DNA of 33,661 nucleotides. Source: an uncultured Negativicutes bacterium. GTDB lineage: Bacteria > Bacillota > Negativicutes > CTSoil-072. Under the pieces are notes generated by a model. It had not been told where the DNA came from, ran no database searches, and saw nothing but the letters and a program-made list of their open reading frames with translations. Numbering within the stretch: position 1 is the first letter of the stretch; each line of letters opens with the position of its first letter. The translations under genes were made by a program, and so were the position numbers. Of the stretch, positions 3,019 through 25,771 are shown one piece after another. Where the stretch lies: positions 594 to 34,254 of the forward strand of contig CAYUNV010000002.1 in assembly GCA_964446265.1 (NCBI GenBank), written 5' to 3'.

Positions 3019-3149
3019 CCCTATGATAATTAATAGAAACGTAATTAGAAAACCCGGCTTGCGCCGAGCTAGTATAGCGACGGTGGAAGCCGCTGGTTGC
3101 ACTTATGTACACCAGACAAAATTTTATACTTTCTGGTGTACTAACAAAA

Positions 3150-4316: not shown

Positions 4317-4335
4317 GGTAGATCCCTCCTAATTA

Positions 4336-4623: not shown

Positions 4624-4689
4624 ATTTTCACCCCTTTTTAACAAGAATCCCTGCAGTCTCCGACAAGAGATTACAGGGATATTTTAGTT

Positions 4690-10115: not shown

Positions 10116-10312
10116 ACCTCCCGACTTGTTGTAAATTGATACCCGCAATCCATCTCACTGTACCATGAGCACATATTATTTAATCTTCCATACATTTACA
10201 CAAAACCCTGCCTATTTTATTTGAATACATATTTTCATGTTCGCAAATCGGCACTGTTTGAAAAAACGGATTTGCTTCAAACTGTGTGGGATGGAATTAC
10301 TCTCCGATGGAC

Positions 10313-10343
10313 AAAAAAACCGCCTAAACACAATGTCTAGGCG
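10313..10343 (-). terminator. Intrinsic terminator after the CoA-ligase gene
   Basis: Minus-strand RNA has CGCCUA (10343-10338) pairing with UAGGCG (10326-10321) across an 11-nt loop, then G followed by U7. Confidence 0.55.
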
Positions 10344-10389
10344 ATGAAAATACACATATTAAAAATTAGGCGATAGTCGGAAATAATTT

Positions 10390-12030
10390 TCATGCGGGCT
10401 TATTAATGCTGTTGAGCTTGTTTCTGATGTCTTGCCGCAGCAGGAACTTTTGCACTTTTCCTGATTCTGTGCGGGGCAGACGGTCGACGATTTCAATGCG
10501 TTCCGGACATTTATATTTGGGTGCTTTCTTTTCCGTGAAATACGCTACGAGATCATCCGTAGTAAGACCTTTAGCCGAATCATTGAGAACGACATAAGCG
10601 CACACCTTCTCACCCAATCGTTCATCCGGCATGGACACAACAGCGATTTCACGGATATTCGGATGCTGCAATAAGAAATTCTCCACTTCGCAGCTACTGA
10701 TGTTTTCCCCGCCGCGGATGATGATATCTTTGATCCGGCCGGTAATTCGGATATATCCGTCAGCATCCATCTTGCACATGTCGCCGCTGTAATACCAGCC
10801 TTCCTCGTCAAGAACTTTCGCCGTCAATTCCGGTTCCCGTAAATAGCCGACAAATACATTCGGCCCACGCGACACTTCTTCCCCTTCGGTTTCCGGCGAA
10901 AGAGTATTGTGCGACTGGTCAACAATCTTTATTTCCACTCCTGGCACTGCATAACCGTCACTATTGATGATGCGTTCGTCAGTATCGTGCAAAGCCGTTG
11001 CCGCATGCGGCACGCTCTCCGTAGAACCATAAACACCAAGCACTTTAAAACCGGCCTGCATTGCTTCTTTCACCATATGCCTGGGTATCGGCGCCCCGCC
11101 GCATAAAAAGTACCGGAGAGAACTAATATCATGCTTCGCCGCCTGGAGCGCGCGGAGGATATCGTGAACAAAGGGAGTGGCACCCATTCCACAAGTGCAT
11201 TTTTCCTGTTCGATAAGCTTCAATGTATTTTCCGGGATGAATATGTCCTGGAGAACGCTTTTTGCGCCAAAAAGGAACGGCATTGTCACGCCATGATGAA
11301 AACCAGTGGCATGTCCTACCGGCGCCGGCATTAATATCGTATCGAAGGAATTGAAATTTACTCTGGCCGCAAACGCTTTTTCGGCAGCAATAATATTATT
11401 GTGCGTTAACATGACCCCTTTGGGATTTCCTTCGGTACCGGAAGTAAACAGTACGGCCGCCAAATCATCTGCATTTACTTCGGCAACGTTCTGAGTTGGA
11501 TCATAATCCCGCAGCACCTGTTCCAATGTCAGACATTGCGTATTTTCCTGATATTTGTCTACCATGACCACTTGTTGGAGACTCGGTACAGTAGGAACTA
11601 ACGATTCAGCCACTTCAAAAAAGTTTCTCTTTTTAAACATATACGGGAAGAATAAGACCTTGCTTTCACATTTATTTAAAATATAGGATAAGTTACGCTC
11701 ACTGTAATTCGGGCAAAGGGCATTACAAATCGCCCCCGCTTTCAAACAGCCAATGTAAATCACCGTGAACTCCGCCCAGCCAGGCATCAGCAACGTGACA
11801 AAATCACCCGGCACAATGCCCTTTGCTTGCAAATACGCCGCCACTCGGCTGGAAGCTTCGTCAAGTTCTCTGTACGTAAACGATTTTCCCTGGAAATCGA
11901 CGACGGCTGTTTTTTCCGGGACGCTTCTTACCGCCATTTGCCAATAATCGACCAGGGTCGCATCCCCCCAGTACCCAAGTTTGCGGTACTTTTCCCTTTG
12001 TTTTTCATTGATTTTATATTCTAAAGGCAT
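10390..12030 (-). CDS. AMP-forming acyl-CoA ligase, FadK(YdiD)/AliA-like
   Basis: 546 aa with the adenylate-forming motifs LFTSGTEGNPKGV, YGSTES, GWYYSGD and LPRTESGKVQKF. The N-terminal YRKLGYWGDATLVDYWQ block matches my recollection of E. coli FadK. Confidence 0.85.
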   Translation of the reverse strand: MPLEYKINEKQREKYRKLGYWGDATLVDYWQMAVRSVPEKTAVVDFQGKSFTYRELDEASSRVAAYLQAKGIVPGDFVTLLMPGWAEFTVIYIGCLKAGAICNALCPNYSERNLSYILNKCESKVLFFPYMFKKRNFFEVAESLVPTVPSLQQVVMVDKYQENTQCLTLEQVLRDYDPTQNVAEVNADDLAAVLFTSGTEGNPKGVMLTHNNIIAAEKAFAARVNFNSFDTILMPAPVGHATGFHHGVTMPFLFGAKSVLQDIFIPENTLKLIEQEKCTCGMGATPFVHDILRALQAAKHDISSLRYFLCGGAPIPRHMVKEAMQAGFKVLGVYGSTESVPHAATALHDTDERIINSDGYAVPGVEIKIVDQSHNTLSPETEGEEVSRGPNVFVGYLREPELTAKVLDEEGWYYSGDMCKMDADGYIRITGRIKDIIIRGGENISSCEVENFLLQHPNIREIAVVSMPDERLGEKVCAYVVLNDSAKGLTTDDLVAYFTEKKAPKYKCPERIEIVDRLPRTESGKVQKFLLRQDIRNKLNSINKPA

Positions 12031-12087
12031 TTTACCAACCCCTTAGTTGGGCACTTTGCATAGCTATTGGCGCCCAGTAAATCTGTT

Positions 12088-13383
12088 TCATCGTGTAATC
12101 GATGTCGCCCGTAAGGATTGCGGTATTATTTGTTTTACCGTAACTGTGAATGTTAAAATCAGCGAACCGAGGATAGATATCCCGGCACCTAAATAGAGGG
12201 CCATATTATACCCATAAGCATCGACAACAACCCCGGTCAACAAGGGAGAGGTTATGCCGCCGATCGTAGCGAATGTCGCCCAAAGGCCAGTGATTTTACC
12301 GGCGTTTTTCCGGGAAAAAACCATGGGCATCGAATAATAGCCCCCCATAGTAAGGCATAAAATCCCATTCGATGCAGAAATTAGAGCTACCACGTTGATT
12401 GCGTTTTCTGCCCTTGATCCCATGATCAATAAAATACCGGCAGCGACCATGCCAATGATCGGAATGATTTTGCGGCCGAAATTATGGCCGAATTTCGCGG
12501 CTGCTTTGTCAGCCAAGTACCCGCCGATCGGGTAGGTAAAGATGGCAACCATATAGGGCATCATGGTATAAATAGCGCTTTGCGTCAATTGGAGGCCAAG
12601 CCCCCGTACAAAATAAGTCGGCAGCCAAGTCATAAACAAGTAAAAAAGATAATTGGTGCAGAAAAAGGATACCGCCCCGGTCCAAACCGACGGAGTCGAA
12701 AAAATGTCTTTCGGAGTCAATTCAGAAGCCGGCTTATCTTCAACAACCCCTGACTGCCCTCGCTCCGTTTTAATATAAGCCAGTTCTTCCTTACTGATAG
12801 TGGGGTGATTTTCGGGCTTATCCTTACCGAACTTCATCCATATAAAAATCCAAAGCGGATCAATAAAAGCAAAGGACCAGAACACCATATGCCAGTTCCA
12901 TTGATGAATAATCCAGGCAGCAATCGGCATGGTCAACGTGATGCCTAAAGGAACCCCTACCAAACAGATCCCTTGCGCCAAACCGGTTTCATGTTTAGGA
13001 ACCCATTTGGCCACCATCGAAGAAATTGCCGGCAAAGCTACGCCTTCACCCATACCCATTAAAATCCGGATGGCCACCATTAAACCGAGGGTTGAACCGA
13101 AAGGCGTTAAGAAAACAAAGATTGACCACCAAACAGCCCCAAAAATAATAACTTTGCCTCCGCCGAACCGGTCTGCCAACCATCCGCCAATAATCATGCT
13201 GCATGCATAACCGATAAAAAAGGCGGTTGACACTAAGCCAAACTGCGTTCCCGTCCAGTTAAATTCTTTCATCATGGATGGGCCGGCAATCGACATATTC
13301 GAACGGTCCATGTATAACACTACGTAACATAAAAGGAATTGCGCTATGATCAACCATCGTGTATTGCCAATCTTTGAACTCAT
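12088..13383 (-). CDS. MFS permease, anion:cation symporter (ACS, DgoT/ExuT-like) type, copy 1
   Basis: ORF 12088..13431, with the start moved to ATG 13383 (AAAGGAGAG SD). It has 12 hydrophobic segments, the LADRFGGGKV loop motif and TWLPTYF. It is clearly paralogous to 19850..21100, sharing MMKEF.WTGTQFGLVSTAFFIGYA. Confidence 0.85.
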   Translation of the reverse strand: MSSKIGNTRWLIIAQFLLCYVVLYMDRSNMSIAGPSMMKEFNWTGTQFGLVSTAFFIGYACSMIIGGWLADRFGGGKVIIFGAVWWSIFVFLTPFGSTLGLMVAIRILMGMGEGVALPAISSMVAKWVPKHETGLAQGICLVGVPLGITLTMPIAAWIIHQWNWHMVFWSFAFIDPLWIFIWMKFGKDKPENHPTISKEELAYIKTERGQSGVVEDKPASELTPKDIFSTPSVWTGAVSFFCTNYLFYLFMTWLPTYFVRGLGLQLTQSAIYTMMPYMVAIFTYPIGGYLADKAAAKFGHNFGRKIIPIIGMVAAGILLIMGSRAENAINVVALISASNGILCLTMGGYYSMPMVFSRKNAGKITGLWATFATIGGITSPLLTGVVVDAYGYNMALYLGAGISILGSLILTFTVTVKQIIPQSLRATSITR

Positions 13384-13464
13384 GGTTATCTCTCCTTTAA
13401 CAATACAAAGTCCCTGTGCCTTTGAGTCCATTATACCTTGATGAAGATAGCTAAGACAGATTAC

Positions 13465-13549
13465 AAAAATCCAGGAATTACGTGTTCATGGCTACCAAGG
13501 CAGAAAATACTTTCTGCCTTGGTAGCCTGAACACTTCTTAAACCTGGAT
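13465..13549 (-). terminator. Long composite hairpin plus U-tract between etfA and the MFS/ligase genes (terminator or attenuator)
   Basis: There is a perfect 17-bp core, 13490-13506 pairing with 13511-13527, with a 4-nt loop. It is extended by GUGUUCA/UGAACAC and by AUCCAGG/CCUGGAU (13549-13543 with 13475-13469). UUUU follows on the minus strand. Confidence 0.6.
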
Positions 13550-13648
13550 TCATGAAATTTCCTCATCTGCACCCAGGTTTAAAGAATTGACACATTTGCC
13601 AAGCGCAAAAACCTTTAAAACAAATGGCTGATCGAGAAAAAAGTCAAA

Positions 13649-14656
13649 TTAGCTTGCTTTCACTTTTTTAATTTCTTCTACCATTGCCGGTATGACTTCT
13701 TGAAAATCACCAACGATACAGTAATCAGCGATTTCAAAGATCGGCGCATCCGGATCTTTGTTGATGGCGATAATCGTTTTGGAAGACGACATGCCTGCCA
13801 AATGCTGAATTGCCCCCGAAATTCCGCAAGCAATATACATTTGCGGTCCAACTGTCTGGCCTGTCTGGCCTACCTGTTGATGATGAGAAATCCAGCCCGC
13901 ATCAACAGCTGCTCTGGATGCTCCGATAGCACCGCCAAGAAGGTCAGCCAGTTCTTTCAGGATCGCGAAATTTTCCGGTTTGCCCAAGCCTCTGCCACCT
14001 GCTACGATAACATCGGCTTCTTCCAGCTTAATGCCGGAATCGGTAACAGTTTTAACGACCTCAACCACTTTTGTTTTCATTTCTTCCGCCGGTGTTTTGA
14101 TATCTTCTTTTACCACGTCGGCTGTCTTCGCTGCATCCGGCTGAACTTTTTTGAACACGCCAGGCCGGACCGTCGCCAGCTGCGGTCTGGTCTCCGGAAC
14201 TGAGCAAACAGCCATCAAATTTCCGCTGAATTCGCGTTTGGTAAACTCAACCGTTCCGCCGGCGCCGCCTACCATGGCGATGCAATCCGCAACCAATCCG
14301 GTATTCAGTTTGCAAGCTGCGCTGGCAGCCAAATCTTTACCGTTGTTGGTTGATCCGATCAGGAGTACAGAAGGTTTATACTTTTCAACCAGTTTACCTA
14401 TCACATAGCTGTATCCGTCAGCGCTAAAGTTTTGATATTCATCGCCGTCAACGCTGATGACTTGATCCGCACCATACGCGATCGCATCCTTAACGGCAGC
14501 ATCCACATTTTTGCCGATAACAACAGCAACCAGACTTTCCTGGCTGGCTGCAGCAAGCTGCCCGCCGGGGTTCAATAACTCCAGGCCGGTATTTTTAGCC
14601 TGTCCTTGTTCTGTTTCAATAAATACCCATACATTCTTGTAATCGCCGATATTCAT
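13649..14656 (-). CDS. etfA: Electron transfer flavoprotein, alpha subunit
   Basis: 335 aa with a C-terminal FAD-binding region (...VGQTGQTVGPQMYIACGISGAIQHLAGM...). GGAGG SD is present. A 14-nt gap separates it from etfB. Confidence 0.9.
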   Translation of the reverse strand: MNIGDYKNVWVFIETEQGQAKNTGLELLNPGGQLAAASQESLVAVVIGKNVDAAVKDAIAYGADQVISVDGDEYQNFSADGYSYVIGKLVEKYKPSVLLIGSTNNGKDLAASAACKLNTGLVADCIAMVGGAGGTVEFTKREFSGNLMAVCSVPETRPQLATVRPGVFKKVQPDAAKTADVVKEDIKTPAEEMKTKVVEVVKTVTDSGIKLEEADVIVAGGRGLGKPENFAILKELADLLGGAIGASRAAVDAGWISHHQQVGQTGQTVGPQMYIACGISGAIQHLAGMSSSKTIIAINKDPDAPIFEIADYCIVGDFQEVIPAMVEEIKKVKAS

Positions 14657-14670
14657 TGCTTAACCTCCAT

Positions 14671-15459
14671 TTAAATAAGCGTAGCCTCTACTAACTTTTC
14701 AACCAATTTACGGGCCGCATCCTGGCCGGTCGCCTCTTTGATCATAACGCCCGACTCTTTCTTGGCCGGCACAAACGTCTTTGTCACTTTGGCCAAAGAG
14801 CCTTTCAGCCCCAATTTTGCTGGATCGATTCCCGGCAGGTCCGCCGGAGTCAATACGTCAATCTTTGCTTTATTGGCCTCCATTTTCCCTTTAACGGAAG
14901 CAAAGCGCGGTTCGTTGATCGTTTTGGTAACCGTGCAAAGAGCAGGAAGCTGCGCTTCAACGACTTCATACCCATCGTCTGTTTCGCGGTTTACAACAAC
15001 CTTGCCGCCATCTACCTGGATTTTTGCGGCATACGTCAATTGTGCAATGCCAAGCTGCTGGGCCAAAGCCGGACCTACTTGGGCGGTTTCCGAATCAATC
15101 GCTTGTTTGCCGCAAATGATCAAATCAAAATTGCCCAGCTTCTTGATCGCGTTGGCTAAGATATAGCTGGTGGTGTAGGTGTCGGAACCGGCAAATGCCG
15201 GATCGCTGATCAGGACGGCTTTCGTCGCACCTACGGAAATACATTCTTTGAGGGCTTTTTTGGCTTGATCCGGTCCCATGCATAGTGCGGTTACCGTGCC
15301 GCCATGCGCTTCTTTCAACTGGACAGCTGCTTCCAGCGCGTGTTTGTCAAACGGATTCACGATATTCGGCAGACCGTCTCTCACTAAGGTATTGCTAGCC
15401 GGATCCATTTTGACATCCGTTGTGTCAGGTACTTGTTTAATACAAACCAGGATATCCAT
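14671..15459 (-). CDS. etfB: Electron transfer flavoprotein, beta subunit
   Basis: 262 aa starting MDILVCIKQVPDTTDVKMDP...LVRDGLPNIVNPFDKHALEAAVQLKE. This resembles clostridial Bcd-associated (bifurcating-type) EtfB as I recall it. GGGAGGAG SD is present. Confidence 0.9.
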   Translation of the reverse strand: MDILVCIKQVPDTTDVKMDPASNTLVRDGLPNIVNPFDKHALEAAVQLKEAHGGTVTALCMGPDQAKKALKECISVGATKAVLISDPAFAGSDTYTTSYILANAIKKLGNFDLIICGKQAIDSETAQVGPALAQQLGIAQLTYAAKIQVDGGKVVVNRETDDGYEVVEAQLPALCTVTKTINEPRFASVKGKMEANKAKIDVLTPADLPGIDPAKLGLKGSLAKVTKTFVPAKKESGVMIKEATGQDAARKLVEKLVEATLI

Positions 15460-15476
15460 GTAATTGCTCCTCCCTG

Positions 15477-16610
15477 TTACTTCAACAATTCTTTAGCGAT
15501 GGTCATCCGTTGAATCTGGTTGGTTCCTTCAAAAATCTGGAATACTTTAGAGTCTCTCATCAATTTTTCAACCGGATATTCTTTGCTTACGCCATAACCG
15601 CCGAAAAGCTGTACTGCATCCGTGGTTACTCTGACTACAGTGTCACCACAGAAGGTTTTCGTGATTGCGCCTTCCAACGTGACAGGATCGCCTTGGTCCA
15701 TAAGCCGCATAGAATAATTAACCAATTGGCGGGCAGCCTGGGTTTGGATCTCCATATCGGCCAGGATCATTTGTACTGCCTGGAATTCGCCGATCGGTTT
15801 ACCAAATTGCTTTCTTTCTTTGACATACTTGATGGACTCATTGATAGCCGATTGGCAAATACCTACAGCCAGGGTGCCTACGAAAGCGCGGGAGATGTTC
15901 AGCGTATTCATAGCAACTTTGAAGCCGATTCCTTCTTCGCCCAATAAATGGGAGGCCGGAACCCGGACATCCGTGAAGGCAACGTCGCAGGTATTGGATA
16001 AACGAAGGCCCAATTTGTCTTCATGTTTACCCACCGTGATACCGGGACGGCTTTTCTCTACGATAAACGCGGATAAACCTTTTAATCCTTTGCTCTTGTC
16101 CGTGGAAGCAAATACTACGAAAATATCGGCATAACCGCCATTGGTTACAAAACATTTTGTCGCATTGATCACATACTCATCGCCATCTCTTACTGCAGTA
16201 GCTCTGACAGCACCGGCGTCGGAACCGGCGTTCGGCTCAGTCAGACAGAATGCGCCAAATGCGCCAGGAGCGATGATATCGGCAAACAATTGCTTCTGCT
16301 CCGCATTGCCGGCTAAAAGGACGGAACGCAGAGCGACAAAGGATGTGACCAGCGAAATGGCAAACCCGGCATCCACTTTGGCTAATTCTTCAAAGATCAC
16401 AGCAGTTTGTTCATAGCTCATTCCTGAACCGCCATACTCTTCGGGAATTTCCAAAACATGCAGTCCCATTTCAAAAGCTTCTTTCAGGAGTTCCAACGGA
16501 AAGTCGCCTGTTCGGTCAAACTCGGCCACCTGGGGTTTAACGCGGCGGATCGCAAAATCCCTGACCATTTCCACCATTTCTTGCAGTTCTTCCGGTGATA
16601 ATTGCACCAT
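15477..16610 (-). CDS. Acyl-CoA dehydrogenase (butyryl-CoA-dehydrogenase-like), copy 1
   Basis: ORF 15477..16631, with the start moved to ATG 16610 (GGAGGA 7 nt upstream). Motifs are CLTEPNAGSDAGA and the C-terminal QIFEGTNQIQR with the catalytic Glu. A 17-nt gap separates it from etfB. Confidence 0.9.
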   Translation of the reverse strand: MVQLSPEELQEMVEMVRDFAIRRVKPQVAEFDRTGDFPLELLKEAFEMGLHVLEIPEEYGGSGMSYEQTAVIFEELAKVDAGFAISLVTSFVALRSVLLAGNAEQKQLFADIIAPGAFGAFCLTEPNAGSDAGAVRATAVRDGDEYVINATKCFVTNGGYADIFVVFASTDKSKGLKGLSAFIVEKSRPGITVGKHEDKLGLRLSNTCDVAFTDVRVPASHLLGEEGIGFKVAMNTLNISRAFVGTLAVGICQSAINESIKYVKERKQFGKPIGEFQAVQMILADMEIQTQAARQLVNYSMRLMDQGDPVTLEGAITKTFCGDTVVRVTTDAVQLFGGYGVSKEYPVEKLMRDSKVFQIFEGTNQIQRMTIAKELLK

Positions 16611-16695
16611 TTCGTATTCCTCCACATTCATATTTTGTATAAGAATTTTTCCTCGTTAGCAACACTCTTTACGCTACGCAGCAAGCGATGAATAA

Positions 16696-17001
16696 TTATC
16701 CTTGCTGATAAATAATCCCTTTGCCTTGCTCCGGATAATTCCAGGAATATCCTTCCGAGCCTTTGTTCAATCGGCTGCAGACGAAACGACAATTTCCGCA
16801 CTCCAAACATCCCACATGGTCAAAGCTCAGTTTGTCGTTAATCGTATCCCATTTATAGCGTTCGGCGGGGCAGCAGAACGTGCAAGCCCGGTTATCCGTG
16901 CAGGTACGGCAGGCGATTTTATCGACAATGATATGCGAGTTGACATCATCACTGTCAAAGCGGTTTTTCGCGAGGCGATCATCCATGGAAAGAATTTTCA
17001 T
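16696..17001 (-). CDS. fixX: FixX-type ferredoxin-like protein
   Basis: 101 aa from ATG 17001, with GCLECGNCRFVC and the ...WNYPEQGKGIIYQQG tail typical of FixX/YdiT. An extra CRTCTDNRACTFCCP motif is present. Its ATG overlaps the fixC stop codon (ATGA at 17001-16998). Confidence 0.85.
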   Translation of the reverse strand: MKILSMDDRLAKNRFDSDDVNSHIIVDKIACRTCTDNRACTFCCPAERYKWDTINDKLSFDHVGCLECGNCRFVCSRLNKGSEGYSWNYPEQGKGIIYQQG

Positions 17002-18281
17002 AACGACCGGCCCCCTTTCCATGCGTCTTTCAGGATTTCAAAATACGGCAGTTTACCGGAAAATACGGTTTGCTTCACTAAATCGAAAACCGACTTGGAA
17101 GGCTTGGCATCGACTGTGTACATGCTTTTCATCATTTCCAGCGCCAATCCCGGATACGTATTAAACAAATGATAAGAATGGGCAATATAGTCATGCGAAT
17201 TTTTAAAGGTCTGCAAATCTTTCAGGACATAGGGTTGCAATTTGTCTTCGTATTGTTTTAAGAAATTTTTGGAGTAGTCGTTGGCATCGATGGCCGCAAT
17301 CGCAGTTTCTGCTGCTGCTATGCCGGAGAGGATCGCATAGTCCATTCCCCGTACCGTGAACCCACGGTTGACTACGAGTCCGGCCGCATCGCCGGTCAGC
17401 AGAAAACCATCCGAGTAAAGCTGCGGCAGCGAGTTGTAGCCGCCTTCCGGAATCACATGGGCCGAATACTCGACCACTTCGCCGCCCTCAATATAGCGGG
17501 CAATCGACGGGTGCTGCTTCAGTTGTTCCACGACATCAACGATGGGCAGATTAGAATTTTTCCAGCCATAAGAGTCTACTACCAACCCAAGGGAAATGCT
17601 GTCTTTGTTCGTGTACAGGAACGCGCCGCCGCTGATGTTTTTGTTGCAATCACCCACGCAGAGCACCGCTGCTCCTTTGCCGCTTTCCAGGTTAAACCGG
17701 TCATTAATTTTTCCCTCTGACATCCTGATGACGTGTTTCGCACCAACAGCCATGTTTTTCACGTTCAACGGCTTGATTAAACCGGAGCGTTCAGCCACGA
17801 TGGCATTGACGCCTTCCGCGCTGATAACCAGATCGGCCTCCAATTCCTCTTCGCCCATTTTAACGCCGGCCACTTTTCCGTCCTTTATGATTAGGCCGTC
17901 CACCGTACTGCCGGCGATCAGCATAGCGCCTTCTTCTTCCGCCTTCGCGGCCAGCCAGGCGTCAAACTTCGCCCGCAACACCGTATGTGATGGACTGATA
18001 TGGGAAAATGTACTGTCAATTGCCATGCTATCTTCGGGAGTCATCATCATCATGATTTCCCGCGTTACTTCCCGCTCAAGAGGGGCATCTGCCCACTCTC
18101 CGGGCATCAAGGCCTCAAGAGCATAGGTATAGAGTCGGCCGCCTGTTACGTTTTTCGCTCCCGGCGTTTCTCCCCGGTCCACGAGGATCACTTGCTTTCC
18201 GGCTTTCGCCAGACGATAAGCAGCGGCAGAACCAGCCACCCCGGCACCAATTATAATTACTTCGAATTTATCTTCTGACAA
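16998..18281 (-). CDS. fixC: FixC-type FAD-dependent Etf:quinone oxidoreductase
   Basis: 427 aa with a TTG start and a GGGGGA SD 7 nt upstream. The dinucleotide fold VIIIGAGVAGSAAAYRLAKAGKQVILVDRG is present, and length and layout match FixC/YdiS. Confidence 0.9.
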   Translation of the reverse strand: MSEDKFEVIIIGAGVAGSAAAYRLAKAGKQVILVDRGETPGAKNVTGGRLYTYALEALMPGEWADAPLEREVTREIMMMMTPEDSMAIDSTFSHISPSHTVLRAKFDAWLAAKAEEEGAMLIAGSTVDGLIIKDGKVAGVKMGEEELEADLVISAEGVNAIVAERSGLIKPLNVKNMAVGAKHVIRMSEGKINDRFNLESGKGAAVLCVGDCNKNISGGAFLYTNKDSISLGLVVDSYGWKNSNLPIVDVVEQLKQHPSIARYIEGGEVVEYSAHVIPEGGYNSLPQLYSDGFLLTGDAAGLVVNRGFTVRGMDYAILSGIAAAETAIAAIDANDYSKNFLKQYEDKLQPYVLKDLQTFKNSHDYIAHSYHLFNTYPGLALEMMKSMYTVDAKPSKSVFDLVKQTVFSGKLPYFEILKDAWKGGRSL

Positions 18282-18427
18282 GGCTCTGTCCCCCTTTTAA
18301 TAAAGTACTTGTATTGATACACTACGACTCATGCGGTCGTAGGAATATCCAATGTTAATTTTTCAAACAGTCCGGGCGCCGGCGTTAACAAAAACGTAAA
18401 CGCCCGGGATAGCACACCACACTGTCT

Positions 18428-19699
18428 TTACGGTAAAGGATTGGGCGCCGATGTTGACGCTACTTTATCAAACTTCAGTTCCTCGCCTTCGTACGCTTTA
18501 ACAGCTCCGGAGGCAATGATTTTTTCCGCGTTCTCTTCTGAATAGCCATATTGTTTCAAGTATTTGCGGGTATCGTAACCGATCGGCTTGGAAACCCATA
18601 GTCCCGGATCCCCAACGCTCTTCAGTCGGATCGGCGTTGTCGGTACGACCCGTTCCCCATAATTGTCATATTGCACGCGCCGCAAAATATCATTGGCGTA
18701 GGCTTCCTCATCGGCCAGTACATCGTCGATGGTAAAGGCTTTTTGATACGGAGTTCCGGTTGCTTCGAAAATCTCCACCCATTCGTCATAGTTCTTTTTG
18801 GCAAACGCTTTTTCAAACGCTTCAATGACATAACCGTTCGTTTTATTCGCCGTCAACTGTTCCAGAGTGTTGTATTCTTCTTTGCCCTTCAGGTCTTCAA
18901 TGCCAAAGGCCTCAACCATCTGGTTAAAACAGTCGTTGTAGAGCGTTTGACAAATCAGGAACCAGACCCCATCTTTCGATTTGTAGCAATTGTTCGAAGG
19001 CATGGTTACCCATTTTCTTGATCTTGGGTAAGCAGCTCCGGACTGGCGGGATACGATCGCATGCTGCATAGCCCAGCAAGCAACATGGTACAGGTTCACA
19101 ACGACCTTATCGCCCAGGCCGGTTTTCCCTTTTCTAACCAATGCAGCCAGAATACCTGCACTCAGGAAACCACTTGCATTCCAATCTCCGAAAGCAGCCG
19201 GCACATTGACGGGGCTTTCACCGATTTGCGGGAAAGCGGTCAATATCCCGCCGCGGGCGGAATAAGCCGTGGCATCATAGCCTTTGGAATCCTTTTCCGG
19301 CCCTCTTTCACCGTAGCCCCGCATGTGCGCATAAACCAGGTGCGGAAACTTTTTACTAATCGTATTGTAATCAAGACCTAGTTTTTCCAATGCTTTATCG
19401 CGGTAGTTGGTCACCATGACATCGGCAGTTGCCAATAGTTTATACACAAATTCGATACCATCTTTGTTTTTTAGGTTAACACTCAACCAATTTTTCCCAA
19501 GGCTGGGCATATCGAAAGCGGGGTCTTCAATATCATCGCGCAGCATACCGTAACCAGGCCCTTGGGTACGCATTTCGTCACCGCCAAAAGGCTCTATCTT
19601 GATAATCTCAGCGCCCATTTCAGCAAGAATTCTCGGGCACGCCGGCGCAGCTACGAAAGAAGCCAGTTCAACAACTTTGATCCCTTCTAATCCTTTCAA
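18428..19699 (-). CDS. Family III CoA-transferase (CaiB/BaiF/Frc family)
   Basis: 423 aa with a TTG start and an AAGGGAG SD 8 nt upstream. The N-terminal GIKVVELASFVAAPACPRILAEMGAEIIKIEP is the family-III signature. Confidence 0.9.
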   Translation of the reverse strand: MKGLEGIKVVELASFVAAPACPRILAEMGAEIIKIEPFGGDEMRTQGPGYGMLRDDIEDPAFDMPSLGKNWLSVNLKNKDGIEFVYKLLATADVMVTNYRDKALEKLGLDYNTISKKFPHLVYAHMRGYGERGPEKDSKGYDATAYSARGGILTAFPQIGESPVNVPAAFGDWNASGFLSAGILAALVRKGKTGLGDKVVVNLYHVACWAMQHAIVSRQSGAAYPRSRKWVTMPSNNCYKSKDGVWFLICQTLYNDCFNQMVEAFGIEDLKGKEEYNTLEQLTANKTNGYVIEAFEKAFAKKNYDEWVEIFEATGTPYQKAFTIDDVLADEEAYANDILRRVQYDNYGERVVPTTPIRLKSVGDPGLWVSKPIGYDTRKYLKQYGYSEENAEKIIASGAVKAYEGEELKFDKVASTSAPNPLP

Positions 19700-19849
19700 A
19701 GAAAAAACTCCCTTCTTAACTTTAGACTGTCAACTATCCGAGTCGGCCGCCTCTGTCACGAGGTCGGCCGCTCGCATTACACGCTAACCGGGTAGCTGCC
19801 ACAGTAAAATCCGGACACCCCAGCCAGCGGATAGTCCTATTCGGATGCA

Positions 19850-21100
19850 TTAGTGTTGGTCAATCTGCCTGATCTTGGCAAAGAACAGGATGATCGCTCC
19901 CAAAATCGCCATGGATGATCCCAAGAACAAAGCATAGTTATAACCGAAACTGTCAACCACTATACCTGTAAGCAGTGGAGCCGATATACCGGCCATCGTG
20001 CCGATCGTGCCATACATACCAACGATAGTACCAGCATTTTTTGGGGCGAATACCATTGGGATAGAGAAAAATCCGCCTTGAGTCAGTGTTAACAAACCCA
20101 TGGAAGTGGCAATCAGTATAATCGCTACGATCGCATCCGGAGCCTGGGCACCGAAAATCAGCGCAATACCACCGATGACTAAACCAATAACCGGGAAAAG
20201 TTTCCGTCCGATATTCTGGCCATATTTCTTGGAGGCCCAGTCAGCCAGCACTCCACCCAACGGATAAGTAATCATGGCCACGCCATATGGGATCATTGTC
20301 ATGTATCCGCTTTTCACCAAGGTAAAGCCACGGCCTACAGCAAGGTAAGTGGGCAGCCAAGTTAACAGCAAGTAAAACACGTAGTTGTAACAGAAGTAAG
20401 CAATAATCGCTCCCCACACAGAAGGAACAGAGAAGATCTGCCCGGAAGTGAAGCTCGGAGCATTATTGGATCCAGCTGTTGCTCCCTGCCCAGATTGAAT
20501 ATACTGCAATTCTTCCTTGCTTACCCCCGGATGCAGTTCCGGACGGTCTTTGCCCAGCCAAACCCAGAAAATGCACCAAATAGGGCCGAGGACGGCAAAG
20601 AGATAGAATACAGTCTGCCAGTTGTAATTCTGAATGAGATGCACACCGATGAGCATTGTAAGAACAACACCGGCCGGAACCCCAACAAGCGTCATCCCCT
20701 GGGCTTTCCCAGCTTCGTTTTTCGGTACCCATCGAGATACTAAAGCCGAAGTAGAAGGCAAGGTAACACCTTGTCCTATACCAACTATTGCGCGCATAAA
20801 CATCAGGGATCCAATGGTTCCTGCGCCGATAGGGGTTAGGAAGGTAAACAAAGACCAGAGCAACGTTCCAGCGACAATTACTTTCGTGGCGCCAAATTTG
20901 TCAGCCAACCAACCGGCCGGATACATGGTCAGTGCATAACCAATAAAAAACGCGGTAGAAACCAAACCAAACTGGGTTCCTGTCCAGTGAAATTCTTTCA
21001 TCATGACGGGACCGGCAATGGATATACTGGCCCTGCCTAAATACACAAAAGTGAAGCAGACCACTAACAGGAATACTATTTGCCAACGTTTATTTGTCAT
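19850..21100 (-). CDS. MFS permease, anion:cation symporter (ACS) type, copy 2
   Basis: 416 aa with an ACGGAGGAAG SD. It has LADKFGATKV and TWLPTYL, and is paralogous to 12088..13383. Confidence 0.85.
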   Translation of the reverse strand: MTNKRWQIVFLLVVCFTFVYLGRASISIAGPVMMKEFHWTGTQFGLVSTAFFIGYALTMYPAGWLADKFGATKVIVAGTLLWSLFTFLTPIGAGTIGSLMFMRAIVGIGQGVTLPSTSALVSRWVPKNEAGKAQGMTLVGVPAGVVLTMLIGVHLIQNYNWQTVFYLFAVLGPIWCIFWVWLGKDRPELHPGVSKEELQYIQSGQGATAGSNNAPSFTSGQIFSVPSVWGAIIAYFCYNYVFYLLLTWLPTYLAVGRGFTLVKSGYMTMIPYGVAMITYPLGGVLADWASKKYGQNIGRKLFPVIGLVIGGIALIFGAQAPDAIVAIILIATSMGLLTLTQGGFFSIPMVFAPKNAGTIVGMYGTIGTMAGISAPLLTGIVVDSFGYNYALFLGSSMAILGAIILFFAKIRQIDQH

Positions 21101-21191
21101 AAATCTTCCTCCGTTATATTAAAACTCTTCTAACAACCATTCCAACCCAGAGCCGTGACCAACTTTCTACCTTCAAGCAAGCTAACTGTTT

Positions 21192-21716
21192 CTAGGATTT
21201 GAAATAGTCCTGCATCTTTTCCAGAGGAACCCCCAGCAACCCCTTTGCTTTTATGTATAAATATATAATGAAACCTCGCTTACAGCGGAATAAACACTCC
21301 TCGCAAATAGCCCTGTCACAATACACATAGGCATCCTCATCAGACAAAGGGAATACCAAAGGCGGCCGTTTCTTTTCCGTAACATATTTGATGTAGCTAC
21401 CGGTAAAGGTCTTAAGCAATATCCATTCCGGCCTATTCTCCGGCTGTACTGTTTCCCAAAATACCTGTACGGCACTCTGGTTGAAACCGCCAACGATTTT
21501 ATAATCGACATGAATTTCAGGTGAAACATCTTCAAGTTGCAAAGGCTTCAAGCGCTCCATGGGCACATCGCAACAGACCGGCGCATGAACGGGCGTATCG
21601 TAGCCTAAAACTTGATACAACCGGGCACAATGATTGCAACGATAGATAACGACATCAGGGCACTCCGGCCAAGGCTTTCTGCCTGCCCTGCTTCTTAACG
21701 GTCCGAACTCCGGCAA
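21192..21716 (-). CDS. Cys-rich protein with an N-terminal desulforedoxin-like (CxxC...CC) domain; function unknown
   Basis: 174 aa with a TTG start and GGAGG 9 nt upstream. YRCNHCARLYQVLGYDTPVHAPVCCDVPM matches the Cys-X2-Cys...Cys-Cys pattern of desulforedoxin and the desulfoferrodoxin N-domain. The C-terminal part lacks the His ligands of superoxide reductase and instead carries CDRAICEECLFRC. Confidence 0.6.
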   Translation of the reverse strand: MPEFGPLRSRAGRKPWPECPDVVIYRCNHCARLYQVLGYDTPVHAPVCCDVPMERLKPLQLEDVSPEIHVDYKIVGGFNQSAVQVFWETVQPENRPEWILLKTFTGSYIKYVTEKKRPPLVFPLSDEDAYVYCDRAICEECLFRCKRGFIIYLYIKAKGLLGVPLEKMQDYFKS

Positions 21717-21916
21717 AATTCCAGTCCTCCCAGTACATTCTTAACCTGAAGCCAGTAGCCTATCTGCAACCCCTGTTTCCGTTCCGGGAGCATCGATCTC
21801 CGGTCTTCATAAGCTCCTTCAACAAGGACCGCATTAGCTGATTTTTTTCAGAACATCCTAATATATTGGCAATATTTCGATAACTTAGTTTACTAGCAGT
21901 TTCAATTTCGTATGGA

Positions 21917-21957
21917 TTAAAAAGATAGGGCCACCAGCTGCAAGTTGATGACCCTAT
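21917..21957 (-). terminator. Intrinsic terminator after acyl-CoA dehydrogenase copy 2
   Basis: A 12-bp stem forms between 21957-21946 and 21936-21925. It is fully paired only on the minus-strand RNA, with 2 G-U pairs. CUUUUUAAUC follows. Confidence 0.6.
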
Positions 21958-21969
21958 ACTGTTTTCAAA

Positions 21970-23154
21970 TTACCAGAGATACTCTAAGACACCGCCGTGT
22001 TTGATCGTCTCGCGGGAAATGGTAATCCGCTGTACGGTAGGCGTACCTTCTTCAAGCCACATCGCACGAACGTCGCGATACAAGCGCTCGGTCGGACCAT
22101 ACGGACAATCTTCGAAGTAGCCTACGCCGCCGAAAATCTCCAGCATTTCATCACTAACCAGTTTGGTCGCATGGATACTGAATAATTTGCACATTGCGGC
22201 TTTTTCTTCGATGTATTCGCCGTGCGGATCTTTTTCGTAGTCCTTTGCGAAGTCATACACCATGGTGCGAAGAGCATGGGTATATGTAGACATATCGGCA
22301 ATCTTCATTCTGATCGCTTGACGCTCAATGATCGGTTTTCCGAAAGTTACACGGTCATGGGCGCGTTTGAGGGAGATTTCCAGCATCCGTTGGCACATAC
22401 CGAGGTTGCTGGCTGCAATATGAACACGGGAAACGGACAGGGAGTGAATAGAAATATGCAGTCCGTCACCCTCTTTGCCGAGCAAATATTTCTTCGAAAC
22501 TCTCATGTTTGTGAACTTTAATCCGGTATGGCCTGATCCACGGCAGCCCATCATATGAGGCATCGGAGTCAGTTCATAACCAGGGGTGCTGGCAGGAACC
22601 ATGAACGTGGAGAGGCGGCGATCTTTCGGAGCGTCCGGATCAGTAACACAGGTAATATAAGAATAGTTGCTGCAGTCAGTATGCGAGATCAGGTATTTTT
22701 CCCCGTTGATGATATAATCATCGCCATCTTTTACTGCAAGAGTATGCAAGTCAGCGCCGGTTCCGCCGCTTTCCTCGGTAACAGCCCAGTTCGTGAAAAC
22801 GGTTCTGTCTTGGAAACCAGGCATTAATTCTTTCTTGAGCTCTTCACTGCCGAAGTCGTACAGCGGGCGCCAGTTCAAGTCCATGGCATAGTGGAGATGC
22901 ATCCGCATGCCGCCAGGCCCACGGCTGAATTCTTCCTGCAGTCTCAGAATTTGAGTTTCGCTAAGGTCCCAACCGCCGTATTCAACCGGCAGGGGAGCGC
23001 GATACAGATTGTTCTTGATGCACAACTGATAAAATTCCTCCGGAAACACATTCGTGTCTTCGATAGCTTTTTGCATCTCATCAAGAGTGCCCTCTGTAAA
23101 TTCCCTGATCTGTTTAAGATACGCCTCAAATTCTTGGTCGGTGATTTTTGCCAT
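21970..23154 (-). CDS. Acyl-CoA dehydrogenase family protein, copy 2 (divergent)
   Basis: 394 aa with an AAGGGGGA SD. It has an ACAD fold (WAVTEESGGTGADL, DDYIINGEKYLIS, C-terminal LEEGTPTVQR). It appears to have its own promoter and terminator. Confidence 0.85.
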   Translation of the reverse strand: MAKITDQEFEAYLKQIREFTEGTLDEMQKAIEDTNVFPEEFYQLCIKNNLYRAPLPVEYGGWDLSETQILRLQEEFSRGPGGMRMHLHYAMDLNWRPLYDFGSEELKKELMPGFQDRTVFTNWAVTEESGGTGADLHTLAVKDGDDYIINGEKYLISHTDCSNYSYITCVTDPDAPKDRRLSTFMVPASTPGYELTPMPHMMGCRGSGHTGLKFTNMRVSKKYLLGKEGDGLHISIHSLSVSRVHIAASNLGMCQRMLEISLKRAHDRVTFGKPIIERQAIRMKIADMSTYTHALRTMVYDFAKDYEKDPHGEYIEEKAAMCKLFSIHATKLVSDEMLEIFGGVGYFEDCPYGPTERLYRDVRAMWLEEGTPTVQRITISRETIKHGGVLEYLW

Positions 23155-23196
23155 TTTGTTTCCCCCTTGTTATTTTTATAACTATTGGATGATTTG

Positions 23197-23255
23197 ATTA
23201 TATGTGCTTTTCTTATCAGCGTCTAATTGATAAATATTGCATGGTTTTATCAATT
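23197..23255 (-). promoter_or_regulatory. Candidate LysR-dependent promoter of ACAD copy 2 (-10 TATAAT, poor -35, overlapping inverted repeat)
   Basis: The minus strand has TATAAT at 23202-23197 and a weak -35 (TTAGAC/TAGACG). The perfect inverted repeat AATTGATAA (23225-23233), 13 nt, TTATCAATT (23247-23255) abuts the -35. Confidence 0.45.
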
Positions 23256-23400
23256 CATAGATAAATTTCATCGATTATTTGTAATTGGGCAAATTTTTAG
23301 TCATTTTATCTATGAAACATCTTTACAATAATTAAGAACGCAACAACCATTAGAGAGCACAACAACTTAAACATCAACAAAATGGCCATTTAGCAAGGAC

Positions 23401-23442
23401 AACAAAAACCTCCCCCATAGAATTGCTTCTACAGAAGAGGTC
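23401..23442 (-). terminator. Intrinsic terminator after the LysR gene
   Basis: A 16-bp stem forms between 23442-23427 and 23422-23407 with a 4-nt loop. It is completely paired only as minus-strand RNA (six G-U pairs, which are C-A or A-C mismatches on the plus strand). UUUGUUGU follows. Confidence 0.6.
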
Positions 23443-23541
23443 TTTTTTCACTATTAATTGAATTTATGTCTACAATGAAGTTATAGTCTATTTATATAGT
23501 TTATTTCTATAGATTCCGTTTTCTTTACGAAAAACGAAAAT

Positions 23542-24465
23542 TTACCGGCAATAGACAGCCTTTATGATATCTTTGCTGTAATTGAGGACATAGTTTTTCA
23601 CTTGCCGGACGGCCATAGATTCATGCCTGTTTTTCATATGGCCAAGATAAATCATTCTTGTATAGACAGGATTTCTTATTGGCAATACCTTCAAAGGAAA
23701 ATTATGAAAGATAGGACTGTCGGGAGCAATTGCAATTCCTACATTGGCAACAACCAGTCCAGACATGGAAATTTCATTTTCCACTTCACAGGCAACCTTG
23801 GGAATGAGATTGACCTTTAAAAACAAGCGGTTGATCTCTTGCTTCAAACCCGGTTTATCGGAATAATGGATCAGTTTATAGGGCTCCAGTTCTTTCAAGT
23901 CAACACTTTCTTGCGAAGCAAGCGGAGAATCATAGGGCAAAATCGCCACTAGCTTCTGTTCACCGAGTGGTATGAATTCCACATCCGTATCTTTCGGTAT
24001 GAGAGAAACGAAAATTAAATCCAGGTTCCCGGCCTTTAGATCCCTCACTAAACCGTGGGTACATTCATTGAGTGTAGTGCCTTCCCGCAGAAGGAACTCT
24101 ACATTTAAATTTTGGTTATCTTTTTTAAACTGCCCGACTAGATTGGGAATAAAATGGGCGCTGAGAGTATAAATAAAGCCGATATTGATTTTCCCTTCAG
24201 TATCAGCCGAGAACTCCCTTACCTTATTAATACCAGTTTCTATTTCAGATAATGCTTTTTCCACATAAGTCAGAAACACCCGGCCTTGCTCTGTCAGCAC
24301 TATATTGCGCCCTTGTTTTTCAAATAAAGGAACGCCAATCTCACTTTCCAAAGCAGAAATTGAATGACTCAGGCTTGGCTGCGTTATACAAAGATTCGTG
24401 GCGGCTTTTGTGCAATGTTGCAATTTGGCGAGAGTTCTAAAATAGTTTAACTGGTAAAGATTCAT
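23542..24465 (-). CDS. LysR-family transcriptional regulator
   Basis: 307 aa. The N-terminal wHTH is MNLYQLNYFRTLAKLQHCTKAATNLCITQPSLSHSISALESEIGVPLFEKQGRN, followed by a periplasmic-binding-protein-like effector domain. AAAGGAGAGG SD is present. Confidence 0.9.
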   Translation of the reverse strand: MNLYQLNYFRTLAKLQHCTKAATNLCITQPSLSHSISALESEIGVPLFEKQGRNIVLTEQGRVFLTYVEKALSEIETGINKVREFSADTEGKINIGFIYTLSAHFIPNLVGQFKKDNQNLNVEFLLREGTTLNECTHGLVRDLKAGNLDLIFVSLIPKDTDVEFIPLGEQKLVAILPYDSPLASQESVDLKELEPYKLIHYSDKPGLKQEINRLFLKVNLIPKVACEVENEISMSGLVVANVGIAIAPDSPIFHNFPLKVLPIRNPVYTRMIYLGHMKNRHESMAVRQVKNYVLNYSKDIIKAVYCR

Positions 24466-24549
24466 GCGCCTCTCCTTTAATCAATTAATATTCATTGATC
24501 TACTTTACCAAGGTGACAGAAACGACTGACTATTTATACTCTTTGTGAA

Positions 24550-24579
24550 ATTATATCCCATCTCGATTTGCTCCGTCAA
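24550..24579 (-). promoter_or_regulatory. Candidate sigma-A promoter of the LysR gene
   Basis: The minus strand reads TTGACG (24579-24574), an 18-nt spacer, then TATAAT (24555-24550). The palindrome ATCAAT-N8-ATTGAT (24480-24499) lies in the predicted 5' UTR. Confidence 0.6.
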
Positions 24580-24728
24580 GATTGTTAATTAAAAGTCTGT
24601 GTTAATTGAAAATCATATTTCTATCTGAAATCGACAGGATCAGAACATTTCAAGACTCCCATTAATGCATCATTCATCATAGTTTTGAACCTGCTGCAAA
24701 ATGTTTTGAAAAAACTGCAAACTAAATG

Positions 24729-25682: not shown

Positions 25683-25771
25683 TGATATACCCCCTCTCAA
25701 CATCATCGGCTGGACAGACAACTCTGTTAAAGATCTCGTCCTTGCATGCATCAATACTGCCGGCAAGACGC

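Follow-up and report, generated by a model that had tools for sequence, protein, structure and literature searches.

Gene content and transcription signals

The DNA examined here, 33,661 nucleotides from an uncultured Negativicutes bacterium (assembly GCA_964446265.1, contig CAYUNV010000002.1, positions 594 to 34,254; hereafter the window, to which all coordinates refer unless another locus is named), carries a gene cluster that we propose to encode the import, activation, reduction and release of one class of organic acid. A sequence-only reading had described it as an island of twelve co-oriented genes headed by a LysR regulator. The open reading frame (ORF) listing places 12/12 of these genes at coordinates 10390-24465, all on the minus strand and in the order then given, and Pfam and NCBIfam searches uphold the family assignment of all twelve proteins.

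The first gene in the direction of transcription encodes a LysR-family regulator with HTH_1 and LysR_substrate domains (23542..24465); here and below, Pfam and NCBIfam define the assignment where no other source is named. It is followed by ACAD2 (21970..23154), a divergent flavoenzyme of the acyl-CoA dehydrogenase (ACAD) family, and by a Cys-rich protein with a predicted desulfoferrodoxin fold (21192..21716; sequence searches, alignments and predicted structure). MFS2 (19850..21100), a major facilitator superfamily (MFS) permease of the anion:cation symporter (ACS) type, precedes a family-III (CaiB/BaiF) CoA-transferase with an invariant Asp172 (18428..19699; also alignments). The next two genes encode a FixC/YdiS-type flavoprotein of the ETF:quinone oxidoreductase kind (ETF, electron-transferring flavoprotein; 16998..18281; also PDB comparison) and a FixX/YdiT ferredoxin-like protein (NCBIfam; ORF 16696..17022, or 16696..17001 from Met8). 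ACAD1, a Bcd-type short-chain acyl-CoA dehydrogenase / enoyl-CoA reductase (15477..16631; also PDB comparison), is followed by the small and large subunits of a bifurcating-type (group 2) Etf, EtfB (14671..15459) and EtfA (13649..14656), both assigned by PDB comparison. The series ends with MFS1 (12088..13431; its true start may be Met17), a second ACS-type permease, and a FadK-type AMP-forming acyl-CoA ligase (10390..12030; NCBIfam NF004758). The fixC stop and fixX start overlap in an ATGA (...TTATGAAA...), so the translational coupling proposed earlier stands provided that FixX begins at Met8 (position 17001), a start that yields a protein of 100 aa and matches the length of the homologues.

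The window had been said to lack the genes of beta-oxidation and of 2-hydroxyacyl-CoA dehydration. Domain searches agree, as no hydratase, hydroxyacyl-CoA dehydrogenase, thiolase or 2-hydroxyacyl-CoA dehydratase domain was detected in any major window ORF. The same ORFs are free of enoyl-CoA hydratase (ECH) and betaine/choline/carnitine transporter (BCCT) domains, the transporters being MFS proteins.

Promoter and terminator calls are consensus matches only. All lie on the minus strand. A sigma-70-like promoter upstream of the LysR gene (TTGACG-18-TATAAT, 11/12 positions; 24550..24579) and an intrinsic-terminator-like hairpin of 19 pairs with a T-run behind it (23404..23445; hairpin scan) delimit the regulator. 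Before ACAD2 lies a probable operon promoter (TAGACG-17-TATAAT, 10/12; 23197..23225), its -35 element adjoined by a perfect palindrome, TTGATAAA-N11-TTTATCAA (23227..23253), which is a candidate LysR box. A terminator-like hairpin with T7 straight after the ligase gene (10319..10345) marks the probable operon end. These signals suggest that the eleven structural genes, from ACAD2 to the ligase (minus strand, 23.2 to 10.3 kb), form one operon and that the LysR gene, although a member of the island, is a transcription unit of its own. The palindrome itself is not kept upstream of ACAD2 in the relatives compared, where the AATTAGAC -35-like element next to it is the only part retained; the ATTAGAC element upstream of ACAD2 is seen again in three related loci (L081, L082 and L083). 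The GC content falls to 36-37% over the LysR gene and a porin-like gene (23000-25000), compared with 45-51% in the operon. Rfam and tRNA scans of the window returned no Rfam family and no tRNA gene.

Conservation of the cluster

Eleven genes occur in the same order in Desulfitobacterium sp. Sab5 and Dehalobacterium formicoaceticum, with protein identities of 62-92%, and the LysR homologue of the Desulfitobacterium cluster is 65% identical to that of the window. Rearranged versions are found in Bacillus sp. 1NLA3E, Anaerosinus massiliensis, Brenneria, Telmatospirillum and Clostridium aromativorans, and a further form in gut Lachnospiraceae is credited by one source to Enterocloster. A profile scan of metagenome contigs for the Cys-rich protein returned 35 loci with at least 8 kb of upstream and at least 2 kb of downstream sequence, mostly from the human gut and many of them near-identical. 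The gene for the Cys-rich protein is accompanied by ACAD2 in all 35 of these, by the CoA-transferase and ACAD1 in 34 each, by the ligase and LysR in 33 each, by EtfB in 32 and by EtfA in 31. The island genes hence travel together, both across several phyla and in 31-35 of the 35 metagenome loci, and on these comparisons we regard the cluster as one functional island, conserved as a unit and of the type represented by cai/fix, ydi and car. Nor is it embedded in beta-oxidation operons: none of ten domain-annotated related loci contains a hydratase, hydroxyacyl-CoA dehydrogenase or thiolase Pfam domain.

Conservation is less strict for the transporters. MFS1 and MFS2 are paralogues of the galactonate/ACS type (52% identical), and the assignment as anion permeases made earlier is sound for the window. 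It does not extend to the gut variant (L089 18209-19516 and gut metagenome loci), in which the MFS permeases are replaced by an unrelated protein of 435 aa with ~10 hydrophobic segments and no Pfam match, presumably a transporter of an undescribed family. The gut variant also has an FMN_bind/FAD_binding_2 flavin reductase gene following the LysR gene.

ACAD1, EtfBA and the direction of electron flow

Comparison with solved structures offers a greater level of detail about the Etf. EtfB scores 194-237 bits against 6fah_B, 4kpu_B, 5ol2_B, 7koe_A and 7qh2_B, the highest value belonging to CarD, and at most 111 bits against human, Paracoccus and Methylophilus ETF. EtfA likewise scores about twice as high against bifurcating Etfs as against canonical ETFs. 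The top relatives of the pair are CarDE (of the Acetobacterium woodii caffeyl-CoA reductase), the Etfs of A. fermentans and C. difficile, EtfABCX of T. maritima, and LctBC. By these scores EtfBA is of the clostridial bifurcating type (group 2). EtfA, with 335 aa, aligns from CarE residue 65 on and has no counterpart of the ferredoxin domain at the CarE N-terminus. Among solved structures, ACAD1 is closest to 5ol2_C, the Bcd of the C. difficile Bcd-EtfAB complex (342 bits).

In the window, fixC and fixX lie near etfBA, with the ACAD1 gene between fixX and etfB. FixC has its best PDB match in 7koe_C, the FixC of T. maritima EtfABCX, and scores almost equally against the YdiS (399 bits) and FixC (397 bits) models. 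The combination of a clostridial-type Etf with FixCX, pointed out in the sequence-only reading, is therefore confirmed here. The proposed wiring of Etf to quinone through FixCX applies to this locus, but FixCX is not part of the conserved core: it is found neither in the gut variant (L089) nor in the Anaerosinus cluster (L081), nor in any of the 35/35 well-flanked metagenome loci. In Anaerosinus massiliensis, the sole full cluster without FixCX, a 669-aa protein is encoded directly upstream of ACAD2 (L081 4335-6344), with ~5 N-terminal transmembrane helices, two [4Fe-4S] motifs (CxxCxxCxxxCP) and two CCG domains. We take it to be the kind of membrane Fe-S oxidoreductase found beside etfAB in syntrophs, and it seems to stand in for FixCX in linking Etf to quinone. 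The loss of FixCX in the gut form and its replacement in Anaerosinus fit an optional quinone link, and we accordingly classify FixCX, from its distribution among the loci, as an accessory, host-dependent module.

The reductive direction is favoured for three reasons. The Etf is of the bifurcating, reductase-associated type; the most abundant variant sits in a fermentative Lachnospiraceae lineage without FixCX or any other quinone link; and electron transfer from acyl-CoA to menaquinone is uphill (about -10 mV vs -74 mV). On thermodynamic grounds, a fermentative host without a high-potential acceptor should be able to run such an ACAD/Etf pair only reductively.

The opposite direction, oxidative catabolism, we consider unlikely. 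A saturated acid, either a short/medium-chain fatty acid or an alicyclic acid such as cyclohexanecarboxylate, would be activated, the two ACADs would carry out one or two dehydrogenations, electrons would pass from Etf through FixCX to menaquinone, and the genes for the rest of the degradation would lie elsewhere. The ligase passes the NCBIfam FadK equivalog cut-off (NF004758: 804.7 vs 736) and has 55% identity to E. coli FadK, FixC and the YdiS protein of E. coli share 43% identity, and the E. coli ydi-fadK cluster has the same inventory, with a role in short/medium-chain fatty-acid metabolism proposed for ydiO-ydiQRST-fadK. The cyclohexanecarboxylate module of Geobacter and Syntrophus also comprises two ACADs and a family-III CoA-transferase. 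Models for cyclohexanecarboxylate-CoA ligase and cyclohexane-1-carbonyl-CoA dehydrogenase are indeed second-best NCBIfam matches, yet their scores stay far under the cut-offs (337 vs 650; 466 vs 792). Oxidation through FixCX is further at odds with the absence of this module from the gut variant and Anaerosinus, with the endergonic step to menaquinone, with an Etf closest to the reductase-associated CarDE, and with the lack of hydratase, dehydrogenase and thiolase genes in cis in the ten domain-called loci.

ACAD2 and the case for two steps

ACAD2 and ACAD1 are both full-length acyl-CoA dehydrogenases but only 29% identical. The catalytic Glu is aligned in both, in FEGT and LEEGT motifs, of which LEEGT is that of ACAD2. 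While ACAD2 is only distantly related to any solved ACAD (at most 191 bits), it retains 69-92% identity among its best 120 homologues, which span Bacillota and Actinomycetota and include Desulfitobacterium, Sporomusa, Pelosinus, Pelotomaculum, Bacillus, Lachnospiraceae and Eggerthellaceae; in the proteobacterial loci the identity is 53-82%. In these alignments ACAD2 is the most conserved protein of the island set. Eggerthellaceae-type contigs (L091, L002 and L003) carry ACAD2 paralogues 67-72% identical to the window protein, three of them in L091, each near family-III CoA-transferase and LysR genes and with no nearby Etf. This expansion recalls the reductase-family expansions known in Eggerthellaceae.

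A single C=C reduction or desaturation had been envisaged for the pathway. The conserved core holds two different ACADs together with an Fe-Cys protein, which makes a pathway of two steps, redox or redox-assisted, more likely than one with a single step.

One candidate for the additional step, which we judge fairly improbable, is an elimination. ACAD2 would act as a flavin-dependent lyase that removes a beta or gamma leaving group (hydroxyl, amine or thiol) from the CoA ester, ACAD1/EtfBA would then reduce the resulting enoyl-CoA, and the small metalloprotein would take the role of the ferredoxin BbuD. The bbu cluster has a comparable make-up: its ACAD-like lyase BbuA removes trimethylamine from gamma-butyrobetainyl-CoA, and it further encodes two family-III CoA-transferases acting as a hetero-oligomer, the small Fe-S protein BbuD, a transporter and a thioesterase (PMC8364193). 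Several of these features recur in variants of the island. A second family-III transferase, 24-25% identical to the main one, lies beside it in six loci (L002, L003, L004, L085, L091 and L093), the Anaerosinus cluster adds a 4HBT thioesterase, and the extended variants of Brenneria, C. aromativorans and Telmatospirillum add an MFS protein, a zinc-dependent alcohol dehydrogenase (Zn-ADH; Tdh/IolM-like) and a short-chain dehydrogenase/reductase (SDR), which suggest hydroxylated substrates although the ADH and SDR matches are generic only. ACAD2 itself shares only 26% identity with BbuA and does not surpass ACAD1 (29%) in this respect, the transporter type differs, and nothing found indicates a leaving group. 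Against the criterion of >70% identity that the authors of the bbu study applied, we rejected ACAD2 as a BbuA orthologue. Retention of the canonical catalytic Glu in ACAD2 does not discriminate, as BbuA retains it too.

The CoA-transferase of the window is without a close solved relative, its best match being human SUGCT (E = 1e-40), and its homologues carry generic names only. None of the island proteins, the ligase, transferase and ACADs included, is a near-identical orthologue of an enzyme from a characterised pathway; the ligase alone passes an equivalog cut-off, the one for FadK.

The Cys-rich protein

The protein between ACAD2 and MFS2 has no Pfam match and only weak similarity to desulfoferrodoxins (TIGR00320, 21.6 bits vs a cut-off of 146.9; PDB 1dfx and 1y07, E ~1e-4). 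Its AlphaFold model, built from 38 homologues, reaches a pLDDT of 83, and Foldseek matches it to the 2Fe superoxide reductases (SORs) 2ji2, 1y07 and 1dfx with probability 1.0 and target-normalised TM-scores of 0.66-0.72. Like desulfoferrodoxin, it shows a two-domain fold with an N-terminal desulforedoxin-type Cys4 site, formed by the conserved C27, C30, C48 and C49. The earlier label 'desulforedoxin-like' is thus apt for this site, whereas the model points to a whole desulfoferrodoxin fold with a degenerate second centre. The His4Cys centre II of desulfoferrodoxin is lost and only its cysteine is kept: C133 corresponds to this SOR ligand, and C138, C141 and C145, which complete a C-terminal Cys4 set, lie in a gained C-terminal extension of ~40 residues. 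All eight cysteines are invariant in the seven cluster-linked homologues aligned; in the 38-sequence family, this still holds for the four C-terminal ones, and conservation of C27/C49 is at least 90%.

Among 1.84 billion representatives searched with a profile, 95 members of this family were found at E<=1e-10, with classical 125-aa desulfoferrodoxins surfacing only at E = 1e-8 to 1e-4. Named members are all 'hypothetical' or carry automated SOR/Dfx labels. Judging from the model and these searches, we read the protein family as a small, distinct desulfoferrodoxin offshoot with a second Cys4 site in place of the catalytic iron site, which is more in keeping with a role in electron transfer or with a structural metal than with superoxide reduction. 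The sequence-only reading took it for an extra inserted into the island; its 35/35 co-occurrence with ACAD2 instead marks it as a core component.

The protein might alternatively be an oxygen-stress accessory, a relative of SOR that shields autoxidisable reduced flavoenzymes and carries no electrons for the pathway. Bcd/Etf-type complexes are known to leak electrons to O2, the fold and the weak sequence similarity are those of desulfoferrodoxin, and the Brenneria homologue is a match to Pfam Desulfoferrodox in which three of the four histidine positions of centre II are retained. We nevertheless doubt this explanation. Members from Bacillota have other residues in place of the centre-II histidines, it is instead the four C-terminal cysteines that never vary family-wide, and the family is tightly tied to the cluster and separated from classical desulfoferrodoxins by many orders of E-value.

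Comparison with known systems

The inventory had been likened to the cai/fix, ydi and car clusters, a view that family searches and the conserved island bear out, even though the Cai, Fix and Ydi equivalog cut-offs are not reached (FadK excepted). Inventory and Etf affinities fit the documented caffeate system best. The carABCDE cluster of A. woodii likewise combines a CoA-transferase, an AMP-forming ligase, an ACAD-type enoyl-CoA reductase and a bifurcating EtfB/EtfA, and CarD and CarE are the best solved relatives of the window subunits. The present cluster adds ACAD2, the desulfoferrodoxin-derived Cys-rich protein, the permeases, LysR and, here, FixCX; it differs further in the missing CarE ferredoxin domain and in an ACAD1 nearer to Bcd than to CarC. 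Caffeate respiration is primed by the ligase; the CoA-transferase then passes the CoA of the product on to new substrate, and the enoyl-CoA is reduced by the electron-bifurcating CarCDE (PMC8085960).

With caiTABCDE/fixABCX, which converts carnitine to gamma-butyrobetaine, the island shares a transporter, a ligase, a family-III CoA-transferase, an ACAD-type reductase and Etf with FixCX, and the E. coli cai/fix genes represent the analogous quinone-linked case. Unlike that system, the island is without the CaiD hydratase and CaiE, has anion MFS permeases rather than the BCCT antiporter CaiT, and encodes a clostridial-type rather than a FixAB-type Etf. All Cai and Fix equivalog scores of the island proteins stay under the cut-off, for instance those of CaiB (103.6 vs 413) and CaiA (196.2 for ACAD1 and 125.9 for ACAD2 vs 540).

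The E. coli ydi-fadK cluster (ydiM-ydiN-ydiB-aroD-ydiF-ydiO-ydiP-ydiQRST-fadK) shares two MFS proteins, a CoA-transferase, an ACAD, EtfBA, FixCX and the ligase. However, YdiF is a family-I transferase and that of the island belongs to family III; ACAD1 and the Etf share only ~30% identity with YdiO and YdiQR; no relationship links the MFS proteins of the two clusters; and the ydi regulator is of the AraC type. The YdiO (224.6/537), YdiQ (133.4/338), YdiR (139.3/528) and YdiS (399.4/466) equivalog cut-offs are not reached, and the 22-kb ydi region examined holds neither ACAD2 nor the Cys-rich protein. Brenneria joins a ydi-like half to ACAD2, the CoA-transferase and the Cys-rich protein, with an ACAD-EtfBA-FixCX-ligase-CysRich arm facing an ACAD2-CoA-transferase-MFS arm. 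Two conserved island components are without counterpart in car, cai/fix and ydi.

Two further systems are instructive. With the bifurcating NADH:quinone/ferredoxin oxidoreductases of Thermotoga and Pyrobaculum (EtfABCX) and of rhizobia (FixABCX), the island has in common the fixC-fixX coupling, a bifurcating-type Etf and the T. maritima protein as closest solved FixC, but in the island an ACAD gene lies between fixX and etfB, and FixCX is dispensable in many relatives. The bbu/gbu genes of Emergencia timonensis, which turn gamma-butyrobetaine into trimethylamine, share with the island an ACAD-family enzyme, one or more family-III CoA-transferases, a small metalloprotein and a transporter, and with its Anaerosinus variant also a thioesterase. 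The island departs from them by its MFS instead of BCCT transporters, by a desulfoferrodoxin-derived protein in place of a 2x[4Fe-4S] ferredoxin, and by its own Bcd-like ACAD/Etf and ligase.

Proposed mechanism

Taken together, we regard it as an even proposition that the island is a self-contained import-activate-reduce-release system for one organic-acid class, car- and cai/fix-like and extended by an ACAD2/Fe-protein module. LysR would sense the acid or its CoA ester and switch on the eleven-gene operon. One MFS permease would import the anion, and its paralogue would probably export the product or take a related substrate. At the expense of ATP, the FadK-type ligase would make the first CoA ester, after which the family-III CoA-transferase could move CoA from product-CoA to incoming substrate in a CoA loop. 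The Bcd-like ACAD1, docked on the bifurcating-type EtfBA, would reduce the enoyl-CoA with NADH and co-reduce ferredoxin, and in menaquinone hosts FixCX or the membrane Fe-S oxidoreductase could join the same Etf to the quinone pool. ACAD2 would catalyse a second, substrate-specific step on the CoA ester, either a second C=C reduction or a redox-assisted elimination, with the two-centre Fe(Cys)4 desulfoferrodoxin-derived protein as its one-electron partner. Gene content, co-occurrence, folds and operon-like signals are observed features of the loci; reductive direction, CoA loop, bifurcation and the role of the Cys-rich protein we infer from them.

Several observations weigh against this reductive, two-module scheme. 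The same parts would serve acyl-CoA oxidation via Etf and FixCX to quinone, and the score of ACAD1 against CarC (283 bits) does not exceed that against Bcd (342 bits). The Eggerthellaceae carry ACAD2, the CoA-transferase and LysR with no Etf nearby, and a 2-Mb contig (L094) has ACAD2, the Cys-rich protein and LysR alone, arranged as LysR-ACAD2-CysRich; ACAD1/Etf in cis is therefore not required by ACAD2. The profile search found no fusion of the Cys-rich domain to an ACAD, and in the gut, Brenneria and C. aromativorans variants the Cys-rich gene adjoins the ligase gene, not ACAD2, so a specific ACAD2 partnership is only one reading. Finally, the 35 metagenome loci include many gut sequences that are nearly the same, and their counts, not being independent, overstate independence; the cross-phylum cases are free of this problem. 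Chance juxtaposition of separate units, to which four intergenic gaps of 146-253 bp and a promoter scan not enriched over shuffles (29 vs 24.9) might point, is scarcely credible, as it is contradicted by a gene order and co-occurrence that hold in different phyla and, among the 35 metagenome loci, in 31-35.

Substrate

Our best guesses for the substrate are plant- or diet-derived unsaturated or hydroxylated alicyclic or aryl-propenoic acids. All hints are weak. Hydroxylated acids are suggested by the Zn-ADH and SDR that the extended variants carry, one ACAD2-CysRich locus abuts a UbiD/UbiX/LpdD aromatic-acid decarboxylase cluster, and the distribution of the cluster among gut, plant-pathogenic, soil and sediment anaerobes fits a plant-derived acid. 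An aroE-like gene near the Telmatospirillum cluster is weak evidence for a shikimate link, since its score exceeds the cut-off for biosynthetic aroE and it is encoded on the other strand, behind a gene for a methyl-accepting chemotaxis protein. Full-text literature searches retrieved no published characterisation of the cluster or its substrate, and neither these searches nor the source names of homologues gave a pointer to the substrate; a preprint on 3-phenylpropionate deals with acdA/carC, not with the present cluster.

In E. coli K-12 (L095, 1771071-1784677), ydiM, ydiN, ydiB, aroD, ydiF, ydiO, (ydiP), ydiQRST and fadK form a nearly unbroken co-oriented block that links quinate/shikimate genes (ydiB encodes a quinate/shikimate dehydrogenase) to acyl-CoA, Etf and FixCX genes. 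This arrangement may hint at the substrate class of the whole ydi family. A bolder idea, which we hold to be a long shot, is that ACAD2 and the double-Cys4 protein constitute a new kind of acyl-CoA redox enzyme with a dedicated rubredoxin-like iron protein instead of ETF. Together with the Bcd/Etf module, it would reductively strip hydroxyls and double bonds stepwise from a plant or dietary hydroaromatic acid, for example from quinate or shikimate to cyclohexene- or cyclohexane-carboxylate. Gut-microbial conversion of quinate and shikimate to these products has been described since the 1970s. If true, the idea would supply the missing genes for this conversion and a function for the E. coli ydi cluster beside ydiB-aroD.

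Neighbouring genes

Pyruvate:ferredoxin oxidoreductase (PFOR), encoded next door to the island (6582-10148, minus strand), had been considered as an electron link. A tblastn comparison found no counterpart in 93 related loci, the gene lying beside the cluster on this contig only, and we therefore rejected PFOR as a member of the system (0/93) and regard its position as coincidental. The listed start of its ORF is a TTG with an N-terminal extension (MRVSIYNKSGGMKVEKRRQMTMDGN...), and the true start is probably an internal Met.

Some 6 kb downstream of the operon lies a split UxaA/GarD (SuyAB-like) dehydratase (3150-4644, minus strand), with a SAF-domain small subunit (4336-4644) and a GD_AH large subunit (3150-4316). 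Near it are genes for an old yellow enzyme (OYE) flavin oxidoreductase (4755-5840), a DUF362 Fe-S protein (1924-3102) and a ferredoxin-nitroreductase fusion (575-1396). In the metagenome locus L108, a split dehydratase 43%/34% identical to this one is found directly beside a LysR-CysRich-ACAD2-CoA-transferase cluster. The group could be a second, linked hydroxy-acid module.

On the other side of the island, the minus strand encodes a 345-aa protein (24729-25766) with no Pfam or NCBIfam match, a hydrophobic N-terminal segment, a Tyr/Asn/Gly-rich composition and the C-terminal end ...SHMF. It resembles an outer-membrane beta-barrel, which suggests a diderm, Negativicutes-like Bacillota host. Also on the minus strand are a PAS-GGDEF diguanylate cyclase with a C-terminal hemerythrin domain (27145-28836), possibly an O2- or redox-sensing c-di-GMP synthase, and a stand-alone 185-aa protein consisting of the pyruvate-kinase C-terminal (PK_C) domain only (29073-29630), next to a DapA-family gene (30035-30913).

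Significance

With CoA-loop reductase systems such as car, cai/fix and bbu, anaerobes use dietary and host acids as electron sinks and thereby shape gut metabolite pools. The principle of the present system is not surprising in this light, but it comes with a new metalloprotein family attached. We see in the island one more such system, which is widespread, common in human-gut metagenome contigs of an Enterocloster-like lineage, experimentally tractable and related to an unexplained cluster of the E. coli y-ome (ydi). Naming its substrate would assign a function to about eight gene families, and a role to a new metalloprotein family evolved from superoxide reductase.

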